DNA of 64,000 bases. Source: Candidatus Undinarchaeota archaeon (lineage in GTDB: Archaea; SpSt-1190; JASMDC01). Position numbers and translations under genes: made by a program. The stretch covers positions 72,379 through 136,378 of the forward strand of contig CAZFHY010000010.1 of the NCBI GenBank assembly GCA_964519305.1, read 5' to 3'. Positions 11,645 to 57,535 of the stretch are shown here, piece by piece. The notes below the pieces were generated by a model. That model did not search any database, was not told where the DNA came from, and saw only the letters and a program-made list of their open reading frames with translations. Position 1 is the first letter of the stretch, and every line of letters starts with the position of its first letter.

Positions 11645-12025
11645 TCAGAACCTTATCCTGAAGAGCGGGACCGCATGCGGGGCCCGGGGGTCGCTGTCCC
11701 ACCTGTAGACTTCCAGGTCCACGCCGGGCGACTCGCCCCTAGTGATATCGAGGTCCACTCCGATGCCCTCTTGTGGCATGTTGTCCATGTCGATCGTCTC
11801 GAGGTCGCTGGCATACACCGGGGCCTCGGCCTTCTCGACATAGGTGTTCGTCTCTTGCGTCATTACGCTCCCGGCCATGGCACCGACGCCCACCAGGAGA
11901 CCGGCCGCAAGAGCACCTCCGGCCAGACCGTAGGTGGAAAGGTCGTCTGCCGCAGTATATCCGTCGGCCATCACCGCCGAGGCGGTTCCGGTCGTCTCAA
12001 GTTCTTCCATGTACATCATGATCAC
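11645..12025 (-). CDS. Small single-pass membrane protein with conserved acidic leader
   Basis: ELETTG..DGYTAADDL leader, Gly-rich TM helix and short acidic domain. GGAGTGA RBS at the start. Confidence 0.8.
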   Translation of the reverse strand: MIMMYMEELETTGTASAVMADGYTAADDLSTYGLAGGALAAGLLVGVGAMAGSVMTQETNTYVEKAEAPVYASDLETIDMDNMPQEGIGVDLDITRGESPGVDLEVYRWDSDPRAPHAVPLFRIRF

Positions 12026-12062
12026 TCCTTTCAGTTCTTACAGTATGATATCGTTCGCGGCC

Positions 12063-12602
12063 TCATCGGATACGGAAGTCGAATCCGGGGATACGGATCC
12101 GGATGTCAACATCGCTCTGCTCGTAGGAGGGGTGGCTGTCAGGGGCCAAAGGGTCCGAACCGAACCCGAGCTCGTCCATGTCGGTGTAGCCGTCGTGATC
12201 GGTGTCGAACCAGTTCGGGTCCGTACCGAGCTCCATGACCTCAACACGGTCACTGATGCCGTCAGCGTCGGAGTCCCATTCCAACGTGCTCGTCCTGTAC
12301 ACACTGAGCTCCTTCGAGTCAGCGAGGCCGTCGTTGTCCGCGTCGGGTACGCCCCGGGCGTAGTCCATGCTGTCGATGAGCCCATCGCCGTCAGTGTCGG
12401 CGCTGAAGGGGTTGTTCCCGGTGACGATATCCTTGGCGGTCGAGTAGCCATCCTTGTCGAAGTCTACCGCGAGCACACCCGTGAGGGCGCCCACGGCTCC
12501 CAGGAGGGCGAGCCCCCGACCGTCCATATCGTCCGTGCTGCTGTATGCGTCGGCGGCCGATGCGCCGTAGCTTCCGTTCGTCTCAAGCTCGTATGCGATC
12601 AT
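12063..12602 (-). CDS. Membrane-anchored protein with DxDxDG calcium-binding (TSP3-like) repeats and conserved acidic leader
   Basis: Start MIAYELE at ATG 12602. Repeats DFDKDG, DTDGDGL, DADNDGL, DSDADGI, DTDHDGY. Confidence 0.85.
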   Translation of the reverse strand: MIAYELETNGSYGASAADAYSSTDDMDGRGLALLGAVGALTGVLAVDFDKDGYSTAKDIVTGNNPFSADTDGDGLIDSMDYARGVPDADNDGLADSKELSVYRTSTLEWDSDADGISDRVEVMELGTDPNWFDTDHDGYTDMDELGFGSDPLAPDSHPSYEQSDVDIRIRIPGFDFRIR

Positions 12603-12752
12603 GTCCGGCCCTGCCCCTTGTCCCCTTTTTATACCTTTCTTTGGTATACCTAATATATTGGGACTGCCTAATATATAGGGCTCTGAGCACAGCTTACCGA
12701 CATACACAGTAATGTTAGGGGATACGAATACATGCAGAGCCGATGAACGGCA

Positions 12753-13724
12753 TCATGCGTCTTCGGAGAGGGCCCAGCACCGGTCGAAGTACTCGATGAG
12801 CACCGGGATCAGAACGTTGCCTGTGGAGCTATGCCACCAGGGAGCGTCGTCGCCAAGCTCCACATCGATGAACGGCAGGCCCTCGGCCTTGAAGGCCAGA
12901 TCCCGAACACGCCCTTCGGCCATCGAATCGCCTGAGATCACCAGCTCACCATCCCCCCATGAGACAGATGCCCGCTTGACGGGGAAGTCGATCTCAATGA
13001 AGGGGAGCACCGGACGCTTCTCCGCGATGTAATAGGTCGCCGAGGCGGGCTCGTGGATTTCGTTGTCGTATTTCACGTCGAATACCTCGGTCACCCTGCC
13101 CTTCGGCCCGCGATACAGGAACGACATGGACATGTGCGAGTCGCCATCCCGATCCCTGAATAAGTGATGGAACTCGTGGACCGTGAAGGAACCCTTGGTA
13201 TAGCTGGTCGCCCGTAGGGGGACCGCTGGGTGATTCACCAGGTTCTGGACTAGGGGTACACCCAGAGCAGGATGGCGCTCAAGGCCTCGTGCCACTTTCT
13301 CCGGATCACGGAGCCGCCAGCGCGCATAGGATGGCTGGGCGGCGTGCCGCAGCTTGAATGTGACGTCGTAACCATATATCCCATCGGTCTCGTCGTCCAC
13401 GGCGACCAGATAGTGATGATAGGGCGATGGGAACACGGTGCGCTCCTCGACCAGATATGCGTTCTCGATGCCCGCGGCCTTGGCGAGCGAGAGCCAGACC
13501 AGGGATTGCTCAAGGCAGTTCCCCTCGCCTTGGGCAACGCACTCTTCCACTGAGCGGAGCCGGTACGGATCATCTGTCTTCAGCAGCTCCTCGTAGCCGT
13601 ATTGGACGTTCTCCAAGACCCAGTCGTAGATGATATCTGCCTTCTCCCCATCGTCCATGTCCTGTGTAACAAGGGATTCGATGATTGGTTTGACTGACTC
13701 GGGATCCAGGTACTGTCCGTCCAA
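12753..13724 (-). CDS. Transglutaminase-like (papain-fold) domain protein
   Basis: IYDWV..NVQY, GEGNCLEQSLVWLSLAKAAGI, then HY and YDVT, consistent with a Cys-His-Asp triad. Confidence 0.82.
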   Translation of the reverse strand: MDGQYLDPESVKPIIESLVTQDMDDGEKADIIYDWVLENVQYGYEELLKTDDPYRLRSVEECVAQGEGNCLEQSLVWLSLAKAAGIENAYLVEERTVFPSPYHHYLVAVDDETDGIYGYDVTFKLRHAAQPSYARWRLRDPEKVARGLERHPALGVPLVQNLVNHPAVPLRATSYTKGSFTVHEFHHLFRDRDGDSHMSMSFLYRGPKGRVTEVFDVKYDNEIHEPASATYYIAEKRPVLPFIEIDFPVKRASVSWGDGELVISGDSMAEGRVRDLAFKAEGLPFIDVELGDDAPWWHSSTGNVLIPVLIEYFDRCWALSEDA

Positions 13725-13881
13725 GGCGGTCTTAAAAATTTAGGCGTGCTTAATAATATTCCCTTTGGACACGTCGACTGTGTTCTGGTGCTCAAGGAAA
13801 AGTTTAAGTATGCCTAACTTAGGTGGCCCTAACTCAAACCGCAAGGAACGCGGACCGGATGATTATCGAAGGTGATCTGAA

Positions 13882-14337
13882 ATGTTCGAAATGGAACTCG
13901 AGTCGGAAGGGTACGGTGCTACCAACACCACGCAGGCCTATGGACAGGTGGATGACCTGAACCTCAGGGGTGCCGCCGTGGGTGCAGCTATCGGGGGTGC
14001 CGTCGGATTTGGCATGGCAGGCCTCGCCGGTTACGGCCTGGCAAACCACATCAGTGATCACTATCTTCAGGACGTCGGCCCTCTGCCGCAAGTGCTCCTT
14101 GAGGTGGACGCTACCATCGCCGGCCTCTACGTGCTCGGCGTGCCATTCGCTATCGGTGGCGCGCTGACCGCTGGTGCAGCCGGTGCTACCTCCACCCTAT
14201 TCAGGGGCGAGGAGGAGGCACCTAACGATGGTGCGGCCTACGACTGGAACGGTGAGCAGGACCTCGACCGTGTCCCCCTCCGGCGCCAGGTACGGTACAC
14301 GTATCCTCGCAGAGACGCGAACGAACTGGACTGGTAA
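13882..14337 (+). CDS. Membrane protein with conserved acidic leader and two Gly-zipper helices
   Basis: ELESEG..QAYGQVDDL leader, GxxxG-rich helices and an AGGTGA RBS. Confidence 0.8.
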   Translation: MFEMELESEGYGATNTTQAYGQVDDLNLRGAAVGAAIGGAVGFGMAGLAGYGLANHISDHYLQDVGPLPQVLLEVDATIAGLYVLGVPFAIGGALTAGAAGATSTLFRGEEEAPNDGAAYDWNGEQDLDRVPLRRQVRYTYPRRDANELDW

Positions 14338-14347
14338 CGGGATACCT

Positions 14348-15901
14348 GTGTACGAGCCCGAAGGGGACGGACAGTTGGAGGAGAGGCCTGAGGACGGAGA
14401 GAATCCGGTCGGGCAAGTCCTTACCTACCAGAACCCTATCGACTATACGGTCACACATGACCTATTATCGCAGGATCCCGCATACTGTATGATGACGTTC
14501 GAGATGTATCGGCCCCTGTCGGACGCGCTGGGCTTCCCGATCGCCAGCGATATGACACTCAGTGCCACGTACCATCCTGATCCATATGATCCGCCCCCGG
14601 GACAATCCCTTACTTTCGACCGCGTCACCCTCGCTAAGAAGCCTGGGGCCGCATGGCTCACCCCTGTGGACCTGGACGGTGACGGGTACGACGAACTGGT
14701 GCTCTCCACCCTCTTCGAAGGGCTCGCAGTGGCCATCCCCCCTATCGGGAACGGAGGGGCGTACATACTCTCAAGAGATGGCGGAGCATCGACGGACGAC
14801 TCCATCGGCCAGTGGTCGGTCGATCCGCTCTTCACGCCCAAGGACGGGATCGGCTTCCCGAACAGTCCGGTCCTCATGGATGTGGACAACGACGGTGTGG
14901 AGGACATAGTGGTCCCGTGCGGTTTCCTCCTAAAACCAACCGGTCGGATCGTGTGGATGAAGGGCGAACCGGTCGACGGTCAGCTCACCTACGGCCCACC
15001 ACAGGACATCCCCATCCCGGACAGCTCCCGCTGGTACCATGCCATCGTACCGGCGGACCTCACCGGCAATGGCCGTATGGACTTCGTCACCACCAACCAC
15101 GACGGAACGCTCCTATCCCCGGGCACCAGCAAGGTGGAATGGTTCGAGAACGTGGGCGGTCCTGGTGAGGCCAGGTTCGTCCACCACCATATCGCGGATA
15201 GGGGCGGATCCCACCTTGCCCTCTACGATATGACCGGTAATGGTAAACAGGACATCATCCTCCCCCAATACTTCGATGGCCCGTCGCTCATATGGCTCGA
15301 ACAGCCCGATACTCCCGACAGTGACTGGAAGGAGCACGTCATCAACGACACCACCGGTAGAGGATTCGGGATCGAGGTCGTCGATATCGATGGTGACGGT
15401 AGACCGGAACTTGTCTACGGCAACCACAACCACCAAGGTGCAGCCGATCCCGCTCACCGGACCATGGGTGTGTACTGGTTCGATATCCCCGCCCCCTCCG
15501 AGGTCCGCGACCTCAATAACTGGGACGACCATATGCATGTAGTCCATGAGGGTTTCCATGTCCGTGCCCGGGATCCCAATGCCAACGCCGCTCCAGGGGT
15601 CGTGCACGTGGGGGACGTCACCGGGAACGGTAGGATGGACATCACCGTGTCAGGTGACGGGGACGACGGGCTTTACATATTCACACAGCAGGACGACGGC
15701 ACTTTCGAGAAGGTTGTTGTCGATCGTCAGCCCATGTCCGGCGACCATCACCTGATGGACGTCAACGGGGATGGACGGATGGACGTGGTATGGACCGTGT
15801 TCGGGGAGGTCGGCCTCCGCGGCCCGCGTTCAATGGTGTACGCCTACATCCAGAAAGAGAACGGACAAGCAGACAATGAAAAGAGTAGTGACAAGGAGTG
15901 A
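14348..15901 (+). CDS. FG-GAP/VCBS repeat beta-propeller protein
   Basis: Seven D-x-[DT]-[GN]-[DN]-G-x-x-[DE] blade motifs (DLDGDGYDE, DVDNDGVED, DLTGNGRMD, DMTGNGKQD, DIDGDGRPE, DVTGNGRMD, DVNGDGRMD). Start placed at the in-frame GTG 14348. Confidence 0.88.
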   Translation: MYEPEGDGQLEERPEDGENPVGQVLTYQNPIDYTVTHDLLSQDPAYCMMTFEMYRPLSDALGFPIASDMTLSATYHPDPYDPPPGQSLTFDRVTLAKKPGAAWLTPVDLDGDGYDELVLSTLFEGLAVAIPPIGNGGAYILSRDGGASTDDSIGQWSVDPLFTPKDGIGFPNSPVLMDVDNDGVEDIVVPCGFLLKPTGRIVWMKGEPVDGQLTYGPPQDIPIPDSSRWYHAIVPADLTGNGRMDFVTTNHDGTLLSPGTSKVEWFENVGGPGEARFVHHHIADRGGSHLALYDMTGNGKQDIILPQYFDGPSLIWLEQPDTPDSDWKEHVINDTTGRGFGIEVVDIDGDGRPELVYGNHNHQGAADPAHRTMGVYWFDIPAPSEVRDLNNWDDHMHVVHEGFHVRARDPNANAAPGVVHVGDVTGNGRMDITVSGDGDDGLYIFTQQDDGTFEKVVVDRQPMSGDHHLMDVNGDGRMDVVWTVFGEVGLRGPRSMVYAYIQKENGQADNEKSSDKE

Positions 15902-15904
15902 TAC

Positions 15905-16666
15905 ATGATGGAGACCGAAGACATGCTCACTAATGATACGAAAAAGACCGGGATTGACACACAAACGGTGTTGGGGGACCCTCGGGCGGCCAGGTTCGTG
16001 GAGGACCTTGTGCTGTACTCGAAGCACACGTTAGATCCATCATTGCTCGAGTTGGATGGAGGTTCGCGATCAGCAGAGGGCCTCCCGCCGGTCAACGAGA
16101 GCAACATCGTAGAGCTCATCGAGTTCTACCGCATGGACCCAGAGCGGGTTAACGGTTTCTTCGAATCCCTGTACGAGGCCCATGAGGGCGATCCGGATGC
16201 CCGGGGTTACCTCCACGCTGCGTACGGCATCGTGGGCGGGAAGGCCGGGCAGGTCGACCGGATAGAGATGCGGTACAAGGAAGGGGTTGAACAGCTGCTC
16301 CGTCAGTATGACAGCGAGCTCACCGAGATCATCGACTGGATGGACAACATGGACAGCAGGAGCCCCTATCTCGGCCTGCTGACCGGTGTTAGCGCGAGCA
16401 CTGTGTTCGGGTACATCACCGATCATGGAGCGGGAGTGACCGCTGCCGTTGCCGCAGGTCTGGCCCTTGGAGGAACGCTCCTGGGATACATGATCCCCCA
16501 CGCTTGGGGCAACCACCGCATAGCTGTCGGCTGGAAGCGCATCACGTCAGAGACCGAGCGAATCGACGGACAGTTCTGCGAGCGAAGAGAAGAGCTCTAC
16601 GAGCGTGCCGTAGAGAACATCGGTCAACTCCGGGGCGAGTACGACCTCGAAGAGATTATCTGCTGA
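15905..16666 (+). CDS. Hypothetical helical protein with a hydrophobic hairpin
   Basis: 253-aa ORF with GGAGTGA RBS and two adjacent Gly/Ala-rich TM segments. Confidence 0.75.
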   Translation: MMETEDMLTNDTKKTGIDTQTVLGDPRAARFVEDLVLYSKHTLDPSLLELDGGSRSAEGLPPVNESNIVELIEFYRMDPERVNGFFESLYEAHEGDPDARGYLHAAYGIVGGKAGQVDRIEMRYKEGVEQLLRQYDSELTEIIDWMDNMDSRSPYLGLLTGVSASTVFGYITDHGAGVTAAVAAGLALGGTLLGYMIPHAWGNHRIAVGWKRITSETERIDGQFCERREELYERAVENIGQLRGEYDLEEIIC

Positions 16667-16672
16667 GCCGGC

Positions 16673-17476
16673 CTAGATGCCATCCCCTCTCTCGGCCTCC
16701 TTCAGCTTCTTGAAGTAGGTCCAGCTCGTCTCGTTGGGCGTTGTGAAGGTGTCAGGTGCGTGCTCGAACTTCGGCGCCTGTGCGCGCACTTCGTCCTTTA
16801 TGCGCTGTGGGAGGTCCTCGAAGCCACATTCCAGCTTGTGGCCCCGACAGTGGTACACCAGCTGTCCTGGCCGATCGCCCATGCCCATCCAGGGCAGCCA
16901 CTGTCCCGTCCGCGTCCAGCTGAACGTCATGGGTACGCTGTCCAAGTCATCGTTCTCCAGCTCGTCCTTTCGCACGATGAAGTTGAACAGCTCGGCCGAC
17001 TCGTACATGTCGCTCTGGGCGTTGTCAGGGTACTCGTCGCGGGTGAGGGGCGAGGGATAGCGGAGGAACATCTCCGCATGCCAGGCGACGTCATCCCCCA
17101 GGTCTGTGGTGGGCACCTTGAAGTAGGTCTCTCCAAACTCCATGTTCACGGGATCGTTCCACACATGGACCACGTCCTCCCGCCGGCCGGTGTAGGGATT
17201 GCTCCACGTATCAAGGAGCTCATCGGTGTGCGGATCGTAGTAGAAGGACACCTCGCGGGTGAGCAGCTGGTAGACGCCGTTCACCTTCTCGACGCGGGCG
17301 ATGTTGTACCCCTCGAAGTGGAAGAGACGATCGGCTGTCATGTCAGGACGCTTGGCATAGACCTCACCCGACCAGTAGGTGACGACCTCGCTGCCGTCGA
17401 GAGATGCCCGTGTGCGCAGGAAGTCGTGGAGGTTCCCTGCTGAACCCTCAAGGTCATAGTGGTCCATCGCGTCCAT
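16673..17476 (-). CDS. DUF1838-like protein
   Basis: YWSGEVY, LFHFEGYN, REVSFYYDP, W.NPYTG, VHVWNDPVN, WTR...WLPWMGMG, recalled as the DUF1838 pattern. Confidence 0.8.
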   Translation of the reverse strand: MDAMDHYDLEGSAGNLHDFLRTRASLDGSEVVTYWSGEVYAKRPDMTADRLFHFEGYNIARVEKVNGVYQLLTREVSFYYDPHTDELLDTWSNPYTGRREDVVHVWNDPVNMEFGETYFKVPTTDLGDDVAWHAEMFLRYPSPLTRDEYPDNAQSDMYESAELFNFIVRKDELENDDLDSVPMTFSWTRTGQWLPWMGMGDRPGQLVYHCRGHKLECGFEDLPQRIKDEVRAQAPKFEHAPDTFTTPNETSWTYFKKLKEAERGDGI

Positions 17477-17477
17477 C

Positions 17478-18293
17478 TCAGAGCAGTTCCTCGAGCGTTC
17501 GCGGCATGTCGTTCAGGAGGTCGTCCATACTGATGCTCTCCCAGGTCACCCGCTCGGCCACGTAGCCGTAACCGATGCCGTAAGCGTGGTACGACGCGTT
17601 CAGGGCCGTTGCGACCGCATCCATATCGATCACACCACTGGCCAGCGTCTCGCGTGCGGCCATAAGCTCTCGCACCGCAGGACGTCGATCCCGCTCGCCC
17701 CATGCCAGACGCTCCTCGAAGGCAGTTTCGGCGAACTCGGCCCCTGCGGGTAGCTCCGTGGCGCGCGCCCGGAACATGTTGGTCGCCATGTACTCTGCCT
17801 GCCCCTCAAGTGCGGCGAGGACAGGTACAGCATCGATGAGGGAGCGGATGTAGTCGCCATGGGTCTCGTCCCGTTGCCGGGCCAGCTCCTTCTGGAGCCC
17901 CGCGCCGATGAGCGCGCCGTGGTTCGCCTGGTAGGCATGGACGAGCTCGTGAGCGAGCACGTACACCAGCTCGCCATCCTGCTCAGGATCAGTGAGGTCC
18001 GGTGTTACGACACGGTCCGATATGAGCACCCGGTGGTTCAGGTCGTCGTACATACCTTTGTTGCCATGGTAATGTACCGCGGCGTCATGGATGGTCGCCT
18101 CATCGGCCTCTACACCCAGGTGATCGCAGATATCACGGGCCAATCCTTCATACACGGCAACATCGGCGATGACCACTTCCGGTAGCGGGCCGAAAGCGAT
18201 CCCGAACTCATCCTCGTAAGCGGTGACTATGTCATCCATAAGCGAATCGTAGGCATCCACGACAGGACGCCCGTCCCTTTCAATGTCGTACAT
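17478..18293 (-). CDS. Zincin-type metalloprotease
   Basis: LAHELVHAYQ (HExxH) with downstream LEGQAEY as third ligand. Confidence 0.82.
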   Translation of the reverse strand: MYDIERDGRPVVDAYDSLMDDIVTAYEDEFGIAFGPLPEVVIADVAVYEGLARDICDHLGVEADEATIHDAAVHYHGNKGMYDDLNHRVLISDRVVTPDLTDPEQDGELVYVLAHELVHAYQANHGALIGAGLQKELARQRDETHGDYIRSLIDAVPVLAALEGQAEYMATNMFRARATELPAGAEFAETAFEERLAWGERDRRPAVRELMAARETLASGVIDMDAVATALNASYHAYGIGYGYVAERVTWESISMDDLLNDMPRTLEELL

Positions 18294-18362
18294 GTCGCAG
18301 GTAAATTTAGGCTTACCTTATATTCGTTACTATTCTGTACAAGAATCGCTCCGGAAGATCCC

Positions 18363-20186
18363 TCAGCAGCCCTCGATGCGTGTCACGTACTCGTACCCCT
18401 TGCTCGTATGCACGGGGATGAGCGGATACATCTCAACGGGGACGTTCGTATCGCCCCGTACCCGCACGACTATACCGCGCGACCGCACCTTGTAGGCAGG
18501 ACGATCGGCCGTGTCGGTCGTGGCGTGGGCAAGGAGAAGGTACGTACCTGCGTCCACCTCGGGGAACTCGTACTTACCCTCCTCGTCGGCGACCACTGTG
18601 ACAACGGAGCCCGGGTAGCCGTCCAAGGGTACCATGTGGAGGCGGACGGCACGGGGCGGCACTCCGTCCACGTAGGCCAGCGTGCGCTCGCCCACTGCTT
18701 TCGTACGCCGGTCACCTGAGCACGATATCCGGTCCTTGACGAACACGCGGCCGTGCACCCTGCCCTTGTTCCCCAGCTCCACGTCCTTTGTGAGATGGCC
18801 GGAGAGCTCTACACGCTCGATGAGACGACCAAGCCCGGGAGGACTGCTTGCCTCAACGACAAGGGTGTGCTCACCACAGGGTACCTTCGTCCGCTCCAGA
18901 CGGCCTCCCTCGAATGGATGGAGACAGGTGTCCAGCCATGCCTGACCGTCAACGGGAGCGTTCCCAGGTCCGGTAACGGTGAGCTCCAGCTCGCATCCGC
19001 CGCTCCCGCACAGGTCATCCACTGCTGGCGGGTGCTCCTGGCCGAACCGGGCATAAGGATCCACACCGGTTAAGTAGGGGTCGAGCACGAAGGCGAACTC
19101 AAGCGGTCGTCCCTCTGTCCGGACGCCCATAGCCACCGGTCTGAGGTCCCGCAGGACCATCATAACATTGAACTGGGCGGTATAGCTCACGTTGTACCTG
19201 CTCAGGCAGATGGGCTCGTCGGCATCGCGTCGGTCGATGAACGGGAAAGGGACAGGTACGTATTCCACGTGCTTCGTGCTCTCCTGCTGGGTACCAGGAT
19301 TGGCCGACAGTGTCATATCGACATGCTCTCGTACCATCTCCATGGACCACTCGATGTCAGGCTCGTCCTTTGCAGCGCTACGCTGTCGCTGAAGCTCCTT
19401 TGCTACCGACAGCTGTGCGTTCTCCACGAAGGGCTGGGCCATGTCGCGCTTAGTGGCGATGATACGCTGTTTGTTGCACGCCATGGTCTCGCCGATGCCA
19501 CCAGGTGGGCTGGGGATACGGTCGTCGTTGATGATACCGGAAAGGAGGTTGCGTTCCATGTACCGCTCCTTCTCGTACGTCTCAAGATAGGCCTTGGCCC
19601 GGGACCAAAGGGTACGCAGACGCAGGGGAAGGGTGATGGTCATGTCCTCCACCGAACGGATCGCCTTATCGTCCCCCTGGAGGTGGTAGGTGAGCTCGAG
19701 CGTCGCCTCAACCCCCTCCTCCTGTAGCGTCGCTATGATCCGTGGCGCGCCGAAGACGACCTGGGCCTTCTCGCCCGCGCGGATCGCCTCGAGGCGCGGG
19801 ACCAAGCGTCGGGTGGACTCCTGAGAGAGGAGACCCTCCATGACCTGCACCGATGGGAAGAGCACCAAACGGCCCTTCTGAAGATAGACGGGGCGTTTGT
19901 TCACCACAGGCCCCGGTAACGAGTTGGACGTGTAGCCACCGCGCCGTCCCAGCTCGTACACGGACTCCTCCACAGAGTCGCGGAGAGCGCTCTCGATGAC
20001 GTCAGAAAGGTCGCGTAGGCGGTCCACGGTCGCCTTCACCTCCCCTGCCGCGGTCCGGGCCTCACGCTCGGTCTTGCTACCGCGCAGGACGAAGGAGACG
20101 ATCACAAGAACGGCAATGGAGATAGCTATGAGGCCGATGAGGCTTATCTGGGCACGCGCACGTTCCCGTACGATCCGGCCGCGCAT
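18363..20186 (-). CDS. Large pilin-like protein with class III signal peptide and C-terminal beta-sandwich domains
   Basis: RERARA|QISLIGLIAISIAVLVIVSFVL. C-terminal ADEEGKYEF..V.AGTY.L resembles a carboxypeptidase regulatory-like domain. TGATG overlap with the upstream gene. Confidence 0.72.
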   Translation of the reverse strand: MRGRIVRERARAQISLIGLIAISIAVLVIVSFVLRGSKTEREARTAAGEVKATVDRLRDLSDVIESALRDSVEESVYELGRRGGYTSNSLPGPVVNKRPVYLQKGRLVLFPSVQVMEGLLSQESTRRLVPRLEAIRAGEKAQVVFGAPRIIATLQEEGVEATLELTYHLQGDDKAIRSVEDMTITLPLRLRTLWSRAKAYLETYEKERYMERNLLSGIINDDRIPSPPGGIGETMACNKQRIIATKRDMAQPFVENAQLSVAKELQRQRSAAKDEPDIEWSMEMVREHVDMTLSANPGTQQESTKHVEYVPVPFPFIDRRDADEPICLSRYNVSYTAQFNVMMVLRDLRPVAMGVRTEGRPLEFAFVLDPYLTGVDPYARFGQEHPPAVDDLCGSGGCELELTVTGPGNAPVDGQAWLDTCLHPFEGGRLERTKVPCGEHTLVVEASSPPGLGRLIERVELSGHLTKDVELGNKGRVHGRVFVKDRISCSGDRRTKAVGERTLAYVDGVPPRAVRLHMVPLDGYPGSVVTVVADEEGKYEFPEVDAGTYLLLAHATTDTADRPAYKVRSRGIVVRVRGDTNVPVEMYPLIPVHTSKGYEYVTRIEGC

Positions 20187-23023
20187 CAGCAAACCACCCC
20201 CTCAAGATTGCGCCAGTTACCCGGATTACCGGAGAGCTGGACCCGTGTCGTGTCCGAGGTCTCGTCCCCGGTGTTATCGCGGACCGTCACCACCACATCG
20301 AGCGGCATGGCATGCTCGGGTGTCGGACAAAGGCGGATGGCTGACAGGTGGAGACGGACTCCGACACTGGTGCGATAAACGAAAGCGACGGTGTCGCTCA
20401 CGTCATGCGCACCCACCCTGACGGAGAAGCTATCCTTGTCGATCGTCTCTCCGCCCTCGAGGTCCATCAGGACGTCCATATCGAACCCGAGCCCCGCCAG
20501 GAGCAGGAATAGTGGCCGCTCCTTGGTCCCCGGCTCCACGCTCAGGATGCGCATGGACAAGGGGACGTGCTCAAGCACTTCCAGCTGGGTCCGGGCCTGA
20601 CCGGTCCGTCCGAGGTGGTTCACCGCAAGTGTCAGGTGGTCCGCCTCCGTGCTCTCCCCATGGAGGTACACGACAACGGTCCAGGTGCCGGTGTGCCGGT
20701 CATAGGTGGCCGAGGTCACGTCCGCCCGAACTGTACTATCGCCACCGCCCAGGTGCGCGGTCATGGCCGAGACGGGTACGTACGGGATATCCTTGTCACC
20801 GGTGTCGGTTATGCGCAGACCGAGACGCACAGTGGCCCCATGCTCCACCGATGCTCGCGATAACCTGCGCGGTGCCACCGAGATCACCTCGATGTCCATC
20901 TCGCTCTGCTCCAGGGGGTACCATACCTCGAACGGCCTGCGGACGAGGTGCATATCGTCACCGACATTGAGCATGAGGAACGCGTCGTAACGTCCCGGTG
21001 CGAGCGTGTGGTTGAAGGCCGTGGTGAAGGTCCACTCGTTGACGCTTCCGTCGAAGGAGATTCCTGGCGGAGGCCCGCCCGTGCCGCCCAGGAAGCTAGA
21101 CGCTTCCAGCTCCTCGTGGACGCGCTTGTCGGCCACGCGATCGTCCATCTTCACGACCCCGGTCCAGGTCAAGGCCACACCATCGCCCATGTCATTGGTG
21201 CGCACGTGGATGGGTTTGAAGTCCTTGACCTCGAAGGTGAAATCCGGTAGCTGGCATCCGGCGAGAGTGCACACCTGACCCGCGGTACATGGGGAGAGCG
21301 CCTGGTCCGACGGATCGAGGCACACGCACGTGCCTGAGCAGATCTCGCCCACCTCCACGCACGAGAGGGTCTCCACTCCCCGCTTGGCCACGCAGGCACC
21401 GCGGGTCCGGACGACCGTGAACGGCGATGTCGAGGCAGAGGGGGATGAACATGCAGTGGCGCTCCCTGGCATCGGGAGGCAGGTGTCCTGATATTCGCAC
21501 ACGTCCCGCGGCATACCGTTCTCATCGAAGCATAGGCAGAGAGGGAAGGCGGAAGACGTGGGATGGCAGGTCATCCGGGGGCCGATGCATGGGATACTGG
21601 TGTCGAGCACGGGAAGGGAGCCTCCGAAGCAAAGGTCGGAGTGCACGGAATCCTGCCTAGGTCGCCAATCCACAATCTCGAACGTCTTGATACCGGTGGC
21701 GACCTTCTCACCACCCTGGTAGACCTCCATCTCGACCTCGTACATCCCAGGATCTAGCTCCTCCTCAAGTTCGAGGTCGGCGGGCTCGCAGCCGCCGGAG
21801 CTCGTCCGGGTCACGATGTTGCCATCGCTGTCGGTGATAGTGACTTCGCACAGCTCACCTTCTCCGGTGGGGAACACGGCGAGGTTCTCTCCCGGCGAGT
21901 ACACATCCTTGTCCGTCGTGATCTCGACAGTCCCCTCTCCCGTCTCGGCGAAGGTGAACGTTGCTGTACCCGTGCTCGTCGAATCGCCCCGGGTGGCACG
22001 TGCGCGGACCAGGTAGTCGCCGGGGACCAGCCCGGCCGTGCCCAACCGGACATTGTCGCACGAGGCGAGGTCGAGCTCATCCCATCGATGCCCCTCCAGG
22101 TCGAGCACGGTAACCTCGCACCGGTCTACATCACCATCGACGGACAGGTCGACCTCGAAGGACGAACCGGTGACCGTGGTACTGCCGACGTCCACTGAGA
22201 CCGTCAGGTCCGCACGGGTGGATTCCAGAGGTGTGCGCGCGGTGGATATCCGGGGCAGGTCGCCCCATGTGTCAATCGCGATCAATACCAGCTCGGCCCC
22301 TTCCTCGACAAGGAGCCCTGTCGTCGGGAGCACGAAGGGATCACAGGCCGGTGAGACCGCGCTCAGCGCAGGGCGCGCCTCTCCCGATTGCATGATGGCG
22401 GCGATGCAGAGCGATCCCTGGAGACGGGGGATGTTGAACGCGTCGCCGATGACGAGCGCACCAGCGAGCTCCTTTACTGAGGAAGGGATGTCCAGCGGGT
22501 TGTTCTTGCCTGATACAGTGAAGGTGGAGAGGGTGGGCGAATCGCGCACGTCCTCGACGACCGCGCGGTAGGCCGGATAGCGGATCGAGAGCTCGCGTTT
22601 CTGAGCAAGCATCCCGGGAGCGAGGGTGAACTGTCGGGACCGGTACTCGTGGGAGAGCCGGACGCGGACACCATCTTCGCCCCATACGTCCTCCCAGCCG
22701 ATCTCCTCGATGCCGAAGGCTGGCTCATCGTTCACCGTGAAGATGATCCTGCCCGTTGAAGTATCACGCCAGGGTTTGCAGTCCGCAGCCGGAGCAGCGA
22801 TACGGCACCGCGTCTGCAGGTCGGCGTCCGTCAGTGCAGCAGCTGCGGTCGGCTCGAGGTTGAAGGTGATGATGGCGGTCTGTCCATCGAGCGACGCGAA
22901 GTCCACTTCCTCCGTCACCGATGAGGAGATGATGGCCATCACAGGCACGGATACGAGCAGGAGCGTAACGAGCAGTGGAAGGAAAGGGAAATTCATCCGG
23001 TCCTTCTTCGCAGGAGGCACCAT
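20186..23023 (-). CDS. Large secreted protein with Ig-like domains and a Cys-rich insert
   Basis: Signal peptide FLPLLVTLLLVSVPVMA; TDKDVYSPGE (MG2-like), PGDYLV and PGMYEV; C-x-C repeats. TTTTATAAA box upstream of ATG 23023. Confidence 0.75.
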   Translation of the reverse strand: MVPPAKKDRMNFPFLPLLVTLLLVSVPVMAIISSSVTEEVDFASLDGQTAIITFNLEPTAAAALTDADLQTRCRIAAPAADCKPWRDTSTGRIIFTVNDEPAFGIEEIGWEDVWGEDGVRVRLSHEYRSRQFTLAPGMLAQKRELSIRYPAYRAVVEDVRDSPTLSTFTVSGKNNPLDIPSSVKELAGALVIGDAFNIPRLQGSLCIAAIMQSGEARPALSAVSPACDPFVLPTTGLLVEEGAELVLIAIDTWGDLPRISTARTPLESTRADLTVSVDVGSTTVTGSSFEVDLSVDGDVDRCEVTVLDLEGHRWDELDLASCDNVRLGTAGLVPGDYLVRARATRGDSTSTGTATFTFAETGEGTVEITTDKDVYSPGENLAVFPTGEGELCEVTITDSDGNIVTRTSSGGCEPADLELEEELDPGMYEVEMEVYQGGEKVATGIKTFEIVDWRPRQDSVHSDLCFGGSLPVLDTSIPCIGPRMTCHPTSSAFPLCLCFDENGMPRDVCEYQDTCLPMPGSATACSSPSASTSPFTVVRTRGACVAKRGVETLSCVEVGEICSGTCVCLDPSDQALSPCTAGQVCTLAGCQLPDFTFEVKDFKPIHVRTNDMGDGVALTWTGVVKMDDRVADKRVHEELEASSFLGGTGGPPPGISFDGSVNEWTFTTAFNHTLAPGRYDAFLMLNVGDDMHLVRRPFEVWYPLEQSEMDIEVISVAPRRLSRASVEHGATVRLGLRITDTGDKDIPYVPVSAMTAHLGGGDSTVRADVTSATYDRHTGTWTVVVYLHGESTEADHLTLAVNHLGRTGQARTQLEVLEHVPLSMRILSVEPGTKERPLFLLLAGLGFDMDVLMDLEGGETIDKDSFSVRVGAHDVSDTVAFVYRTSVGVRLHLSAIRLCPTPEHAMPLDVVVTVRDNTGDETSDTTRVQLSGNPGNWRNLEGVVC

Positions 23024-23122
23024 CCGCCCATCACCACCGCGCATTCCTTTATAAAACGAAGGAGAGAGAACGCACGTCGGCCCCCCCTCTCCGTGTCCCC
23101 CTTCATCGTTAACCATTCATCA

Positions 23123-26100
23123 TTACCTCCGTGTTGTGCATGTGCACTCGCACTTGTCGGTCACGAGAGTGCAGCTCTCGGGCTCGATGGTGAGCGTACA
23201 GGTCGGCAGACAGGCGTCGCACGATACCTCCAGGTAGCAGTCGCCCACGGTGAAGGACGCGTCGATGGGCTGGCGCGGACCCTCGCCCTCCCAGACACCT
23301 TCTTCGAGCTCCAGGCGGGAGTAAGGATGGGCCGTCGAGTCCATATCCTCATCCAGCCAGGTCGTGCCGTCCCTATCACGGACAATGACGTGGAGGCCCA
23401 TGGTGCTGCCACCGGGCGGATCGTTGAACGCTCCGAAGACCGGGCCCTGGAGGGCGAAGACATCGTTGTGCTCAAGGCCGGTGACGTCCTGCGTGACACG
23501 GGAATTGGTGACCTCACGCCCGTCGGCCAGCTGCGCCCATGCCTCGATCGTGCCCGCGAACATCGTACTCGCGGAATTCTCCACGGTCACCTCGAACGTG
23601 ACGGGCTCACGGACAGCGGCAGCGTCCATGGCCATACCATCGCTGTCCAGGAACGCGGCCTTGGTCACCCTGGCCCGTCCCTCCTTGACCTCGATGTGTC
23701 CCTGTGGGAACTCGGGAACTGCCCGTTCCCGCTCATACAGACACCCGGCCGTCATCTCCGGACCCGTGCAGCTGTCATGATCGAATCCCTTCTCGGGCAG
23801 GACCATGTCCAGGACCGGCTGGCCATCGCTGTCGAGCAGACGGACGCCGATCTGGAGCGGCCAGCCAAGATGGTCTTCTGTCAGGGCGACCGGCTCGGTC
23901 ATGAGCTCGATGTGCTCACCGGTCCCGTTGAGTACGGTCACGGTCCTGCTCCCGGCGAGCTCCTGCCCTGCTCCGAGCACTGCGTAGACCTCTGCCGTAA
24001 CGGGCGCCTTTGTGTTGGAGATACGGACTCGACCTGCCACCTCCATCCCGGGGTTGCCCTCAGAGATAGGGGTCCCGAGTTCAGCATCCACGAACGAGCC
24101 ATGGACGACCGCTGCGTCACCGATCTCGACAATATGAGATAGCACCCCGTCGGCCCAGGCCACGCCCTCACCTTCGGTGTCCAGGACGTCGATCTCGAGC
24201 TGGATTGTAGTGCCTGACAGCCCGTGTTCGAGCGTGAACGGGTCAGAGAGGTAGTCCCAGGACTCACCGGGTGGTAGCAGTGGCATGCGGATAGCGCCTA
24301 GTTCGATGAATCCCTCCTCGCACGTACAGGGGCAGGAACCGCCCCCGGTGCAAGCAGAGCAGTCGCACTCCCCAATGACGCGGAGCCGTGCGTTCGCACG
24401 GCCTAGTTCGAAGGTGCCATCGCCAGTGTTCTCCACCTCTGCGTACACTCGGACGAGGTCTCCTGCATGGAAGGTGCGGACCGCGGTCGGGTTCACCCGG
24501 AGTATGTTGAGGGTGGGTATCTTGAGCCACGATGGGACCATCTTCCGTATGAATTCCATTGGCCTCGGGGCGGGTCTGTTACGGGGGGCCGTACTGCTGC
24601 CCGGGGAGCTGTCGGGCTTCGTACCACCACCCGAGCTCCCACTGCTGGACGACGAGGGCCTCCCCCCCCTACGGTATTGCCTCCTACGGTCACCCACCCC
24701 TCGTGGCGTTGAGTACCGGAAGCACTGGTCCATGTTCAAGAACAGCTTGTTAGGATCCAGTCGGGCAAGGTTGCCCAGTGCCATCCGTTGCCCCTTGGCC
24801 CAGGTGTCGGTCTCCCGGACCTGGAGCTGTGCACCACCCTTCAGTTCGGACTCGCACCGGCCCGGAGGTTTCCCGCATCCGGCCTTCGGTGCGTCCTTGA
24901 CGATCCTCTGGACGGTCTGCTTGACCTGCTGGGGGGACTTGCCTCCACTGCTGCTGCCTGCCTGCTTGTCCTTCCCCTCGTCCTTGAGGTTGAACCTGCC
25001 GCAGTACTTGGACCACTCCTTGTCACCCCGGTAACCAACCGTGGCGACCATCAGGCCACGGGCCTTGCGCACGTGTTCAGCGGCCTGGTCCAGGGTGGCC
25101 GCATGGGCAGGGGCCATGCCGAGCCGCTTCTGGAGCCAGCCGCCAGCGGCCTGCATGCGCTGTCCCCAGCCGCCTCCACCGATGCCCCCGCCCACGTCGC
25201 GTGCCATGGGACCCTTGGTGAGGGTCACCAGCTTGGTTATGTCGGTCTGGAACGCGGCGAGCCCGGCACCGTCCTTGGCGTTCGCCGAGGCCGTGTTCAC
25301 CAGGGCGTCGATGCGGCTCTGAGCCCCGGCCACGGGTTGCCCTGTCCGCATGGCCGTCCCGACGTCGCCGGCCACGCCCCTGAGCCCGGAGCTCACTGGA
25401 CCGAGGTTCCCGGTGAGCCCGTCGAGCTTCCCGCGGTCAGAGGACACACGCTGCTGGAGGCTGCAGGGATCGAGGGTGGCGCCACCCAGGGAGGCGGACC
25501 CGTCCACGGTGCAGGCGTCCTTGACGTCGGCGAGCGCCTGCTGGCAGGCCGCGAGCATTGCAGGGACGGTGATGACCGTGCGCGAGGGCGCGGTGACCAG
25601 CGTCGCCTTGGGCTGACTGCACGACTTGTCCTTCCCGCGTCCTGCCTTGCACGTGTGGACGCCATCCTTTCGCTCGACCTTCGTGACCTCGCCGCAGCCC
25701 TTGGAGGCGTCGCACTTCTCGCCCGAGGAGGACGGCCCCCCGACCTCGCACGCGTCGGCATAAGCGCACGGCACGACCGCGCAGAGCGGGCACTTCGCCG
25801 CGTTCTTCTCGGCCTCCCCCGGCGGTGGCGGGGTGGCCGCAGACGAGCCTGTGTCGCTCGGATATGACCCTTTCCCGGCCGTCATCGGATTGGGCTTCCC
25901 GCCCATCTCGCGGCAGGCGCGTTCGAGCCGTTCCGCGATGAGCTCGGGGTAGCGCGGGCCCATCCCTTTCTTCCTGCAATAGTAGTTGGCGTTGTTCCAC
26001 CTAGTGCCGGGGCCGTAGTAGTGGACGCACGACGCCATCATGGCATCGTACAGCCCCATGCCACGCTTCCGGTTACTGATGGCCCGGGTCATGGCGCTGC

Positions 26101-27079: not shown

Positions 27080-27082
27080 CGA

Positions 27083-42410: not shown

Positions 42411-42578
42411 ATCGGGACCGGTGACGGTCCCCTGCTGGTGGACGTAGGCGGGCTGCACCGGCGCGGCGCCCATGACTGGCGCCATCACGCCGCCGACGGC
42501 CGAGAGCACGCCCGCTGCAAGAGCGGCGTAGCCCGCGACCTTCCCGACAGGTGCTCCGTCACCGTCGGCCTCCTCCAT
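41160..42578 (-). CDS. Clostripain (C11) family peptidase, membrane-anchored
   Basis: SDNNLE, ADHGSGW, GFDACLM. Start MEEADG at 42578. Confidence 0.94.
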   Translation of the reverse strand: MEEADGDGAPVGKVAGYAALAAGVLSAVGGVMAPVMGAAPVQPAYVHQQGTVTGPDAIDMGEYQVTLPEDIPLVYGEDARVPSEAKEWTVMIYSASDNNLENDQLTDINDMEKLGSNDYMDIVVQVDRGYTADTPQGGDWTGARRYHIQKDTDPINYNSPVLEELGQVDMAAPETLAEFVEFTVNNFPAKHYMLIIADHGSGWEGFIDDSSHHAGQMSTPELDQALEQVKERTGAQIDILGFDACLMGSTEVAYQVRDAAGFLVASEELEGVEGWPFEGIISQRALDVMEKFNRSFKDADRPALSPKLYSYLIVKEGANDTATFDTLSSTELEKMPKVASAVNGLAEALRASEVPVTEFNTVEGNSQDYGWGSPLVDVVDLAKNLAANEQYGKDVKLAANKVIEAVDQAIVAEHHNSSHPGSHGLHIYVPSSWWAGSYDGEAYEQMEFAEDTQWDEWLKDRAEKMKQTPSGQ

Positions 42579-42579
42579 C

Positions 42580-45322: not shown

Positions 45323-45545
45323 TACGGGACTTGACGACATCCTGGGCCTCCGTGATGAAGGCGGGCCTGTGAGGCCCGGTCCCCGGAGCGGGCGCGGTAT
45401 CGCCGGGACCCGCGGTGACGCCGATGGCGCCGCCCACGGCTGCAGCGAGGCCGAGGCCCAGTGCGACATACCCGCCGACCTTCTTGAGGGTGAGCCCTTC
45501 CTTCTCGTTCTCCAAGTCAGTTTCGTACTCTACGTCCATGATCAT
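44073..45545 (-). CDS. Clostripain (C11) family peptidase, membrane-anchored
   Basis: Catalytic domain almost identical to 41160-42578. TGATG overlap with the upstream gene. Confidence 0.94.
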   Translation of the reverse strand: MIMDVEYETDLENEKEGLTLKKVGGYVALGLGLAAAVGGAIGVTAGPGDTAPAPGTGPHRPAFITEAQDVVKSRTIDMGEYQVTLPEDIPLVYGEDARVPSEAKEWTIMIYSASDNNLENDQLTDINDMEKLGSNDYMDIVVQVDRGYTADTPQGGDWTGARRYLIQKDTDPINYNSPILAELGQVDMAAPETLAEFVEFTVNNFPAKHYMLIIADHGSGWEGFIDDSSHHAGQMSTPELDQALEQVKERTGAQIDILGFDACLMGSTEVAYQVRDAAGFLVASEELEGVEGWPFEGIISQRALDVMEKFNQSFKDADRPALTPKLYSYLIVKEGANDTATFDTLSSTELEKMPKVASAVNGLAEALRASEVPVTEFNTVEGNSQDYGWGSPLVDVVDLAKNLAANEQYGKDVKLAANKVIEAVDQAIVAEHHNSSHPGSHGLHIYVPSSYWAGSYDGEAYEQMEFAEDTQWDEWLKDRVEKMKQTPSGQ

Positions 45546-46603
45546 CACTCCCACTCTACCCAGTCAGGGTTGTAGGTGCCCAGGGGCAGGTCGTCCCCGA
45601 ACATCGATTGTGGTGAATATCCTAGTTGAGAATAAGCGACATCCCGGGGGATGAGCAGGTCGCGAACGTTGTTATCGGTGAGATAGGCCTTGCCGTCGAT
45701 GATGGTCTCGGTCCAGGCATGACCTCCGCCCTTCATCGTCCCGAGCACGACCACCGAATCGTATCCCTTGGCCTCGAGCAGTGAGTTCGATGCGAGCGCG
45801 TAGTCCTCGCAGTCGCCCCGGGAGAGGCCTGTGAGGAAGTGATCAGGGTTCTGCCAGTAATCGGTGTGACCTAGATGATCGGCGTCGAAGAAGTACTTCC
45901 CCATGAGCGGATTGCCGTCGGCGAACCGCATGAACTTGATACCGGATATGTTGTTCCCACCGATGTTGATCGCGGCGGGATAGTCGCGGACCTCGAGGTT
46001 GTTGGCGAAACCCTGGACCACCTCGTTGTCCGGTGTGATGTAGGACGAGGGATTATTGGGCATGTAGAAGCCCCGCTGCTCGCCGATCTCCTGGTGCCGG
46101 AGCGAGGGGAAGCCGTCGGGGATCCCGTCGCTGTTGGCGTCGGGATTATCAGGGTGAAGGTCGTAGCCGTCAGCGAGCCCGTCGCCGTCCCGATCGAGGA
46201 CCATGAAGTCGGGATCCTTGCCGTCGATGATACCGTCAGCGTCCACGTCGGGATTGGACCAGTCCCAGTCCCTACCGTCGAGGATACCGTCCCCGTCGAT
46301 GTCGGGATTACCGGGATGAGGGTCGATGGAATCGTAGAGGTGGTCGCCGTCAGCGTCCGCCATGGCCTGCTCGGGGGAGAGCGTGGGAACGCTGTCGTCG
46401 CCCAGCACACGGGCCTTGGGCGGACCGGGTTCGGCCTCTTTGCCGAGCAGTGCACCGAGGACGAGCCCACCGGTGATTGTGAGTCCGACCGCGATGAAGC
46501 CCTTGGCCACCGACTCGGCGTTCAGGTCCTCGGTGACCATGTAGCCGTCGGCCGCCGTGGCGGTCCCGGCATCATCGGTCTCGAGGTCGATGTCCATAGC
46601 CAT
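45545..46603 (-). CDS. Membrane-anchored transglutaminase-like cysteine protease with DxDxDG repeats and conserved acidic leader
   Basis: DYWQNP, RGDCEDYALAS, GGHAW; five DxDxDG-type repeats; DLETDD..DGYMVTEDL leader. Confidence 0.88.
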   Translation of the reverse strand: MAMDIDLETDDAGTATAADGYMVTEDLNAESVAKGFIAVGLTITGGLVLGALLGKEAEPGPPKARVLGDDSVPTLSPEQAMADADGDHLYDSIDPHPGNPDIDGDGILDGRDWDWSNPDVDADGIIDGKDPDFMVLDRDGDGLADGYDLHPDNPDANSDGIPDGFPSLRHQEIGEQRGFYMPNNPSSYITPDNEVVQGFANNLEVRDYPAAINIGGNNISGIKFMRFADGNPLMGKYFFDADHLGHTDYWQNPDHFLTGLSRGDCEDYALASNSLLEAKGYDSVVVLGTMKGGGHAWTETIIDGKAYLTDNNVRDLLIPRDVAYSQLGYSPQSMFGDDLPLGTYNPDWVEWE

Positions 46604-56193: not shown

Positions 56194-56284
56194 CGGCGTT
56201 CCCCGTCCTTATATGACAAAGACTGCGAGGATACCGGTTTAAATGTGTTTGCTCTTACTATAAGAGTGTTCGGAGCGACAGGGA

Positions 56285-57535
56285 CTATGCCCAGTCCACA
56301 TCGTAGTCGCTGTACTGGACCTCGTTGTTGAACGCGTAGAGCGGGTTCCAGTCGGTGTGTGACTCGTAGAATGCGTCCCGTTCCACCAGGCTGTCGTAGT
56401 CCACCACGTACCGGGTGCCGTTGATGTCCGTCTCCAGCCACGCGTGGCCGCCCTCGTTGTTGGGCTGGGTGAACCCCACGACGACCATGGACGGATTCCC
56501 CCGGGCGATGAGGAGGGACGAGGCGCTCAGAGCGTAATCCTCGCAGTCCCCCACCCGACCGTTGGCCAGGTAATGTTCAGGATTGACCCAGTAGTCGGAA
56601 TCGTTGAACTGGTCGATGTCGCGCTCGTAGCTCTGGAACAGATCGGTCCCGTCGGCGAGCTGGAGCTCGTCGTTCTCGATCTCCAGCCGGTTCGCGAAAC
56701 CCCGGACCACCGGGTCGTCGGGATCCACGTACTCGTGAGCGTCACGGGCATGCCGGAGCAGACCCGAGGACGAGGAGCGGTAGTCGCGGAGCGCAGGGCT
56801 CCCGTCCAGGTTCCCGTCACCGTCGTGGTCCGCCTCCCGCGGGTAGAGATCGAAGCCGTCCATGAGGCCATCACCGTCGCTGTCGGTGTTGTCCGGGTCC
56901 GGGTCCTCACCGTCTATGAGCAGGTCACCATCGTGGTCAGGTTCGTGGAGGTAGGTATCCTCACCGTCGAGGAGGCCGTCGCCGTCCACATCAGGGTTCT
57001 CCAGGTCGGGGTCCTGGCCGTCGAGCAGACCGTCCGCGTCATGGTCCGCCTCGGAGATATAAGGATCTGCGCCGTCGAGCAGGCCGTCACCATCGATATC
57101 GGGATTCTCCAGGTCAGGGTCCTTCCCGTCGAGGAGGCCATCGTTATCGTAGTCGGAGCGCATGGGGTATGGATCGATGGCGTCACCGATACCGTCACCG
57201 TCGGTGTCCGGGTTCCCGCTGTCCGGATCGAGGCCGTCGATGAGTCCGTCACCGTCGACGTCCGGATTCAGAGCGGCCGGGTCCGAGCCATCCATGATGC
57301 CATCGCCGTCCGAGTCGGGGACGAGCAGCTTCGTCCCGCCCGTGAGCTCGCGGATGTTGGACGCTCCGTCCTTGTCGAAGTCGGCCATGAGGAAGTAGCC
57401 GGCGCCCAGCGCACCGCCCATCACCGCACCGAATGTCAGATGTCTCCGGTCCAGGTCATCGGTGTCGCTGTACCCCTCCACCAGTTCGGACCTGCGTTCC
57501 CCGTCCGACTCCAGTTCGATCTCGCGCTTAAACAT
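56285..57535 (-). CDS. Membrane-anchored transglutaminase-like cysteine protease with about 11 DxDxDG repeats and conserved acidic leader
   Basis: DYWVNP, VGDCEDYALS, GGHAWLE; ELESDG..EGYSDTDDL leader. Confidence 0.88.
   Translation of the reverse strand: MFKREIELESDGERRSELVEGYSDTDDLDRRHLTFGAVMGGALGAGYFLMADFDKDGASNIRELTGGTKLLVPDSDGDGIMDGSDPAALNPDVDGDGLIDGLDPDSGNPDTDGDGIGDAIDPYPMRSDYDNDGLLDGKDPDLENPDIDGDGLLDGADPYISEADHDADGLLDGQDPDLENPDVDGDGLLDGEDTYLHEPDHDGDLLIDGEDPDPDNTDSDGDGLMDGFDLYPREADHDGDGNLDGSPALRDYRSSSSGLLRHARDAHEYVDPDDPVVRGFANRLEIENDELQLADGTDLFQSYERDIDQFNDSDYWVNPEHYLANGRVGDCEDYALSASSLLIARGNPSMVVVGFTQPNNEGGHAWLETDINGTRYVVDYDSLVERDAFYESHTDWNPLYAFNNEVQYSDYDVDWA
56800..57320 (-). repeat. 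Coding tandem repeat, 54-nt/18-aa unit DxDGDGLxDGxDPxxxNP
   Basis: About ten consecutive units in the translation. Confidence 0.9.

Follow-up and report, generated by a model that had tools for sequence, protein, structure and literature searches.

Conserved leader motifs have repeatedly led to dedicated export, localisation or anchoring machines, as with YSIRK, accessory Sec and archaeosortase. Among bacteria, the YSIRK/GS motif, the KxYKxGKxW motif of accessory Sec substrates and the ESPR motif of autotransporters are all basic and lie within cleaved Sec signal peptides. Here we describe an acidic N-terminal peptide, referred to below as the tag, on five proteins encoded in a 64,000-nucleotide stretch of DNA (the window; contig C10:72379-136378) from the genome of a Candidatus Undinarchaeota archaeon (3,634,172 bases in 42 contigs, GC content 59.6-59.9%). 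Like the bacterial leaders, the tag is a short motif, conserved and placed at the very N-terminus ahead of a hydrophobic segment, and is found on a subset of surface proteins with unrelated passengers. In contrast, those leaders are basic, bacterial and cleaved and have Pfam/NCBIfam models, whereas the tag is acidic, archaeal and free of any such model, and its anchor is seemingly retained; its charge is opposite to that of every classical N-terminal signal. A further likeness to accessory Sec is the use of a glycine-containing hydrophobic core as part of the signal (PMC5578698).

In its way of working the tag resembles bacterial conserved leaders, and its logic parallels that of C-terminal tripartite sorting signals, yet it appears to fall outside the classes against which it was compared. 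A Sec signal processed by signal peptidase I has a basic n-region, whereas the tag carries a net charge of -5 to -8 and lacks K and R altogether in 20 of the 30 copies analysed. The Tat motif (S/T-R-R-x-F-L-K) has no counterpart, since RR occurs in the linker behind the tag in a single one of 29 aligned rows and the rest of the motif is missing there. Class III leaders of type IV pilins and archaellins, which prepilin peptidase processes, likewise face the cytoplasm, immediately precede a hydrophobic helix and stand ahead of diverse C-terminal domains. However, these leaders are short and basic and carry [KR]-[GA] before the helix, whereas the tag is long and acidic with no conserved [KR]G site, its helix is rich in Gly and Ala, and some of its carriers are hairpins or doubly anchored. 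The PGF-CTERM/archaeosortase, PEP-CTERM/exosortase and LPXTG/sortase systems follow a similar logic: a short signature motif is coupled to a transmembrane helix with a charged flank, and dozens of surface proteins that are unrelated to one another carry it within a single genome, in restricted lineages. Those signals are C-terminal, place the motif outside the cell and co-occur with a processing enzyme; the tag is N-terminal in all 34 copies, its motif probably lies inside, and no partner enzyme was found in 19 neighbourhoods of tagged genes. Lastly, YidC/Oxa1 substrates such as the Pf3 coat protein have a short acidic tail before a single membrane helix, but these tails are not known to contain a conserved motif or to recur across families, and the tag probably has the opposite topology.

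An acidic peptide joined to a Gly/Ala-rich helix

The tag is one of two joined parts of a clade-restricted, modular N-terminal module that occurs on about 34 proteins with at least 17 cargo types. The preliminary description of the window had reported five dissimilar ORFs (open reading frames) that share a 22-residue motif, and all five are present with the motif at the positions given there:

11645-12025, minus strand: tagged protein 1, about 124-126 amino acids; tag at 11939-12016, Gly/Ala-rich helix, short acidic domain
12063-12605, minus strand: tagged protein 2, 180 amino acids from the ATG at 12605; tag at 12525-12602, helix, TSP3-type Ca-binding repeats
13882-14337, plus strand: tagged protein 3, 151 amino acids; tag at 13882-13959, two-helix membrane hairpin, disordered C-terminal tail
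45545-46603, minus strand: tagged protein 4, 352 amino acids; tag at 46523-46600, helix, Asp-rich repeats, transglutaminase-like/BTLCP-like Cys-protease domain
56285-57535, minus strand: tagged protein 5, 416 amino acids; tag at 57452-57529, helix, long array of TSP3-like Asp-rich repeats, transglutaminase-like/LapG-like domain

Six-frame translation of the genome, when searched with a relaxed regular expression, yielded 12 matches, of which 10 fit the strict pattern and each was seen by reading to lie a few residues after a Met. A profile was made from them and run iteratively over the genome (E<=0.01; 67,893 six-frame ORFs), which together with the first-pass hits returned 31 rows. The row at C37:840, a truncated spurious match, was dropped and the remaining 30 copies were analysed, whereas a longer profile that spans both tag and helix recovered 34. 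Five residue shuffles of the same ORFs gave no matches at all to the regular expression or the profile, compared to 12 and 31 in the real set; the motif is far from chance and statistically unambiguous. Identical spacing, as claimed for the five window copies, extends through the genome, with 29 copies aligning gap-free across 26 columns. Within this alignment every copy has D25, conservation reaches 90% or more at L6 and Y20, and the consensus reads M-x-[YFM]-D-[MILV]-[DE]-L-[ED]-[TS]-x-G-Y-x4-A-A-x-G-Y-x3-[DE]-D-L. A strictly N-terminal location was also borne out, as an in-frame ATG, GTG or TTG lies 1-7 codons 5' of the D-L-E-T start in 30 of 30 copies; the four weak copies added by the longer profile are N-terminal as well (4/4, for a total of 34/34). 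A Shine-Dalgarno-like GGTG or GGAG precedes such a start codon in 18 of the 30, and several other copies have a TATA-like box about 41-50 nt 5' of the motif. When the 36-residue peptides ahead of helices from 3400 ORFs were clustered without supervision, a single large cluster (n=25) emerged, corresponding to this motif, and the next clusters had at most 4 members.

One copy had appeared to be internal to an 864-residue frame. That placement was rejected, as this is a shadow frame overlying a repeat gene in which a run of N interrupts the sequence; the tagged gene itself begins straight after the stop codon of the preceding gene. Three abutting tagged genes at C20:55816-61074 encode long arrays of helical repeats of about 37 residues; a run of N (an assembly gap) lies at approximately 2900-3000 of that locus, within the middle tagged gene. 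The spacing Y20-x3-D/E24 may recall the YxxxD/E signal of type VII secretion; AlphaFold2 (AF2) predicted no WXG-type fold.

The composition of the tag is set against a proteome that is mildly acidic (D+E 13.3%, K+R 10.4%). A polar linker of 0-9 residues, often with one K or R, separates it from a Gly/Ala-rich hydrophobic segment, in agreement with the Gly-rich transmembrane helix proposed earlier. A Kyte-Doolittle scan flagged this helix directly in 28 of 30 copies and the remaining two were judged by eye; the segments are 17-33 residues long and look like anchors, where a Sec signal processed by signal peptidase I has a hydrophobic core of 7-15 residues and then an AxA-type cleavage site. Gly and Ala make up 22.8% and 22.5% of the first helix vs. 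8.6% and 13.2% in a background set of 4335 hydrophobic segments with similar hydropathy by matching, or 45% vs. 22% for the two together (Mann-Whitney p=2e-16, with paralogues that are not independent). Residues 27-60 hold a mean of 5.5 small-xxx-small pairs, with a minimum of 2. At the conserved columns, synonymous codons are mixed (L6, CTT 12/CTC 9/CTG 8; Y20, TAC 16/TAT 11; D25, GAC 24/GAT 6) and the mean nucleotide identity among tags is 52%, indicating that selection has kept the peptide, rather than a DNA or RNA element or the product of recent gene conversion. The tag itself is predicted to be intrinsically disordered. In the AF2 model of tagged protein 3, residues 1-22 have a pLDDT (predicted local distance difference test) below 50 and helices at 15-61 and 67-104 score 72-81, while the module modelled alone is drawn as a single continuous helix over residues 7-55 with a pLDDT of 53-64 in the tag part.

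Distribution and cargo

The lineage restriction proposed for the motif was upheld by a scan of 41 archaeal genomes, in which the tag profile matched only two, both of one genus. It found 31 places in this genome, 27 in its sister genome and none in the 39 others (15 of the same class and 24 from other groups; completeness 72-100%). In the sister, too, the module stands at the N-terminus of proteins with unrelated cargos. With the longer profile, 17 genomes of the phylum gave 34 matches here, 28 in the sister and none in the other 15. As an aside, this genome and its sister measure 3.6-3.8 Mb, vs. 0.6-1.2 Mb for those 15 sampled genomes. A HMMER search over 1,835,955,588 representatives (about 15 billion proteins; E<=1e-3) returned 36 proteins, 34 of them true members, in which the match begins at residue 1-5 in 33 cases and at residue 18 in one, behind an apparently over-extended gene call. 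The two remaining matches were rejected: P0010 is a repeat protein matched over columns 11-36 only, and P0038 is an unrelated repeat protein of 3101 residues with a partial match to the profile. By BLAST, the true members are orthologues from both genomes or relatives of 34-92% identity, representing at least 1-2 further taxa; the more divergent of these relatives share 34-55% identity with their best counterparts in this genome. A word-indexed homologue search produced 9 matches, all from the tag's own lineage; a protein Atlas search with the tag gave no usable match, and metagenomes scanned in search of a third syntenic locus gave one contig of 1146 nt, too short for use.

Comparison to Pfam (30 proteins) and NCBIfam (29 proteins; YSIRK, KxYKxGKxW and ESPR included) showed no model over the first 30 residues. 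Literature searches returned nothing bearing on the tag for Undinarchaeota with SecA, or for SecA in DPANN or other archaea by horizontal gene transfer, and a search for archaeal acidic N-terminal signal-anchor motifs gave, among the matches listed, no title or abstract of relevance. The motif is thus undescribed in the libraries and literature searched. The preliminary description had listed four contrary outcomes, namely a motif away from N-termini, a single family of full-length paralogues, a described domain and a distribution independent of secA, and none of them was found. Of its proposal of a lineage-specific targeting or cleavage tag, the lineage-specific, N-terminal and modular character stands and targeting is a candidate role; as to cleavage, the stretch from tag to helix contains no conserved motif for it.

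The diversity of cargo seen in the window (short acidic domain, Ca-binding repeats, hairpin, two transglutaminase-like proteins) also holds across the genome. Stripped of the tag, the 30 proteins were grouped by BLAST into 17 clusters (E<1e-3), of which 7 have several members and 10 are singletons. Pfam identified transglutaminase-like/BTLCP-like domains, TSP3 Ca-binding repeats, a LOR/scramblase-like domain and a weak DUF4347; some cargos are helical repeats with sub-threshold, tape-measure-like Pfam matches, and 19 of the 30 proteins have no Pfam hit at all. In the window, tagged protein 1 has no match in Pfam or NCBIfam, and a relative in the public collection, P0004, is 78% identical to it. 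Tagged protein 2 matches TSP3_bac (E=2.4e-08); its gene has a TATA-like box about 43 nt 5' of the motif, and a longer GTG-started frame extends to 12707. The ATG of tagged gene 3 is preceded by a Shine-Dalgarno-like GGTG. Tagged protein 4 matches Transglut_core (3.9e-05) and Peptidase_C93 (1.8e-04), and a search for external homologues of its cargo, sought to show a leader swap, recovered only the own-lineage orthologue P0022. Tagged protein 5 matches Peptidase_C93 (2e-06), Transglut_core (5.6e-06) and the NCBIfam model CystProtLapG (5.6e-06, well under that model's cutoff). Small tagged proteins of the TSP3 group also end in an alternating hydrophobic-Arg motif (11645-11665 and 12063-12090 of the window; members on contig C12), which a genome-wide regular expression found confined to that subgroup apart from chance-looking matches.

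Tagged genes are spread over 14 contigs in 19 neighbourhoods, where they often stand in tandem, two or three together and in the same orientation. Their GC content (61.3% vs. 59.9% genome-wide) and GC3 are genome-typical, and the genes are native to the genome. BLAST clustering of 1405 ORFs from these neighbourhoods (+/-6 kb) found no recurrent partner gene: no family is present in more than 3 of the 19, and the sole one to reach 3 is a Zn-dependent alcohol dehydrogenase. With no dedicated neighbour family, any reader of the tag would act in trans.

Topology, function and rival explanations

The reading that we favour, at a probability of roughly 0.4, is that the tag is a cytoplasm-facing short linear motif coupled to a special anchor helix, which a trans-acting reader would use for the sorting, clustering or assembly of a group of surface proteins. 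A disordered, acidic and nearly K/R-free peptide of about 26 residues with fixed anchor residues is followed, 0-9 residues on, by a Gly/Ala-rich signal-anchor helix with small-xxx-small spacing. The helix would insert N-in, holding the acidic peptide at the cytoplasmic face within a few residues of the membrane, with the cargo (TSP3 repeats, transglutaminase-like proteases and helical repeats) facing outside. A cytoplasmic or membrane-face reader would then dock the peptide and sort, cluster or co-assemble the tagged proteins, and the tag would be retained rather than cleaved. We infer the N-in, cargo-out topology from several features of the sequences. Helix 1 is followed by an acidic flank (+0-3/-1 to -6), and its only nearby basic residue usually stands on the N-side; basic tails (e.g., +4/-0 and +3/-2) are seen in several two-helix members, among them P0008 and P0009, and the cargo domains are of kinds usual outside cells. 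If a reader exists, it would represent a novel principle of sorting or assembly in archaea, with the motif serving as a handle for cataloguing the surface proteome of an uncultured group; if none exists, the module would be a clean case of an invented and rapidly expanded N-terminal element. Its immediate reach is limited by a very narrow distribution and by the lack of a cultured host.

Several observations weigh against a sorting role. Some two-helix members have acidic C-terminal tails, and the topology derives from charge rules only, under which a tag of -5 to -8 with no basic residues could itself be translocated. No reader turned up in the family clustering of the 19 neighbourhoods, and the proposed function derives from sequence analysis and structure prediction. 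Inter-species identity is 76.5% in the tag vs. 81% in helix and cargo (28 best-hit pairs, some of them paralogous; 2 partial pairs dropped), hence the tag is no better conserved. Since the module belongs to a single narrow clade, comparative tests are powerless. Finally, many carriers are small members of tandem arrays, and some of the seemingly unrelated cargos may be diverged paralogues below the sensitivity of BLAST.

Other explanations divide the same evidence differently. The tag could run on as a helix into the anchor, with the proteins bundling into one membrane complex in a pilin-like, readerless manner. The continuous helix drawn for the isolated module, the abundance of small-xxx-small pairs, and the frequency of co-oriented tandem sets of 2-3, including one translationally abutting trio, all agree with such a shared oligomerisation module; we consider it unlikely, as pLDDT in the tag is low in both models and a conserved Gly ahead of both Tyr residues disfavours a stable soluble helix. 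Short acidic N-tails are translocated by YidC-type insertases with the aid of the membrane potential, and the charge and K/R-poverty of the tag would suit an N-out arrangement, in which the peptide acts outside, for example by binding Ca2+ or a surface layer; by reading, the motif start D-x-E-x-D-G is loosely like a Ca-binding loop. This is quite improbable, however, since TSP3 repeats and LapG-like protease domains would end up in the cytoplasm and the basic tails of two-helix members outside, and the linker beside the helix often holds the only K or R. We give equally little weight to cleavage, in which the tag would be taken off at the cytoplasmic face, whether by a peptidase dedicated to it, as class III signals are, or by some other protease. 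Its position ahead of a hydrophobic helix fits that idea, and among the 29 rows, 5 (or 6, if a borderline case is counted) have a [KR][GA] pair just before the helix; in contrast, 23-24 rows have no such site and several are acidic there instead, the leader is acidic rather than basic, the helices are Gly/Ala-rich, and some members are two-helix hairpins or have C-terminal anchors, unlike pilins. The class III reading proper was rejected for want of a conserved cleavage pair. Another thought was that A-A-x-G in the tag, which bears a vague likeness to the di-alanine LapG site, makes it a substrate of the LapG/BTLCP proteases that carry it; this was rejected too, as under either topology the protease domains lie across the membrane from the tag. 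Finally, the tag might have no special role, being the inherited N-terminus of a single family of small membrane proteins that diverges fast and shuffles its domains, and retained only for its compatibility with membrane insertion. The 19 proteins without a Pfam hit, the many carriers of 60-250 amino acids in tandem arrays, and tag conservation between species that does not exceed that of the cargo would all be expected from such a history. Yet among paralogues only the tag keeps fixed residues and spacing while the downstream parts are unalignable, the cargos include distinct Pfam families, and other signal-anchor or secreted proteins of the same genome insert without a tag, leaving this explanation a slim chance.

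SecA and the neighbouring genes of the window

Three of the tagged genes lie close to a gene for SecA, which the preliminary description had put forward as a possible reader of the tag. The relevant features are:

8479-10944, minus strand: secA, for a bacterial-type SecA that is full-length and has each of the four Pfam SecA domains; TATA-like box just upstream
11019-18360 (approximate), no strand: block beside secA, about 7.3 kb, specific to this genome; context and not part of the tag

The claim that three copies lie within about 3 kb of secA is true at 3.4 kb, but the adjacency is specific to this genome. In the genome collection, the closest SecA locus has 92% identity. A blastn comparison of window positions 1-24000 to the sister secA locus showed that 4534-11019 and 18360-22921 match contiguously at 83-89% identity. 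In the sister the two flanks abut, and the block of about 7.3 kb has no counterpart there; the best sister-genome counterparts of tagged proteins 1-3 are paralogues of only 31-53% identity. The block contains CpeT-like, transglutaminase-like, FG-GAP and DUF1838 genes, the three tagged genes, and two genes of unknown function, and no clear terminal repeats were found at its edges.

A SecA-dependent route akin to accessory Sec, in which the acidic tag and Gly-rich helix divert proteins to one or more horizontally acquired SecA proteins, would account for several facts. Accessory Sec substrates are encoded alongside, and distributed with, a dedicated SecA2, with or without SecY2. Of the 41 archaeal genomes searched, the 2 that have the motif are also the 2 that have SecA (PF07517), and a second secA, 63% identical to that of the window, is present on the 8-kb contig C36 (3068-5542). 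On the other hand, both genomes belong to one genus and so represent one event, 31 of the 34 copies are elsewhere on 13 other contigs, and the tagged block is missing at the corresponding site of the sister. Moreover, the second secA is on a short contig in a bin with an estimated contamination of 4.29%, and the lone SecY is of the archaeal/Sec61 type (no bacterial SecY among 24 PDB matches). SecA binds basic n-regions, whereas the tag is acidic. There is a bacterial precedent for the helix, in that glycines within the signal peptide's hydrophobic core route the accessory Sec substrate GspB to SecA2, as stated in PMC5578698. Taken together, a small residual probability attaches to the SecA route, and the proposal that SecA reads the tag is not supported, given the scarcity of copies near secA (3 of 34), the missing block in the sister, the archaeal SecY and the single lineage. 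Fainter still is the prospect of a private sorting route, in which the tag and a Gly-zipper anchor would mark about 1% of genes for a dedicated machine, possibly the bacterial-type SecA paralogues that no relative of this lineage acquired, as an archaeal counterpart of accessory Sec.

Next to secA, at 11017-11640 on the minus strand, is a gene of the CpeT/CpcT family (phycobilin-lyase-like, PF06206; E=1.6e-40), here in an archaeon. An 18-nt intergenic element with 72-100% identity recurs at 12640-12675, 13804-13821 and 18307-18324; its copies lie 5' of three genes, namely tagged genes 2 and 3 plus the one at 17478-18293, and it may be a shared promoter or operator.

Other exported proteins of the window have either classical basic/hydrophobic signal peptides or an acidic tail that is specific to the clostripain family. 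Three giant proteins (976, 1318 and 1883 amino acids) are encoded at 20186-32734 on the minus strand, two with classical basic/hydrophobic signal peptides and one with an M23 peptidase domain; the former indicate that the organism also uses ordinary Sec signals. Further along the same strand, at 32921-45554, are six tandem clostripain-family (Peptidase_C11) paralogues with E values of about 1e-41 each, several of which begin with their own family-specific acidic tail, different from the tag, followed by a Gly/Ala-rich anchor.

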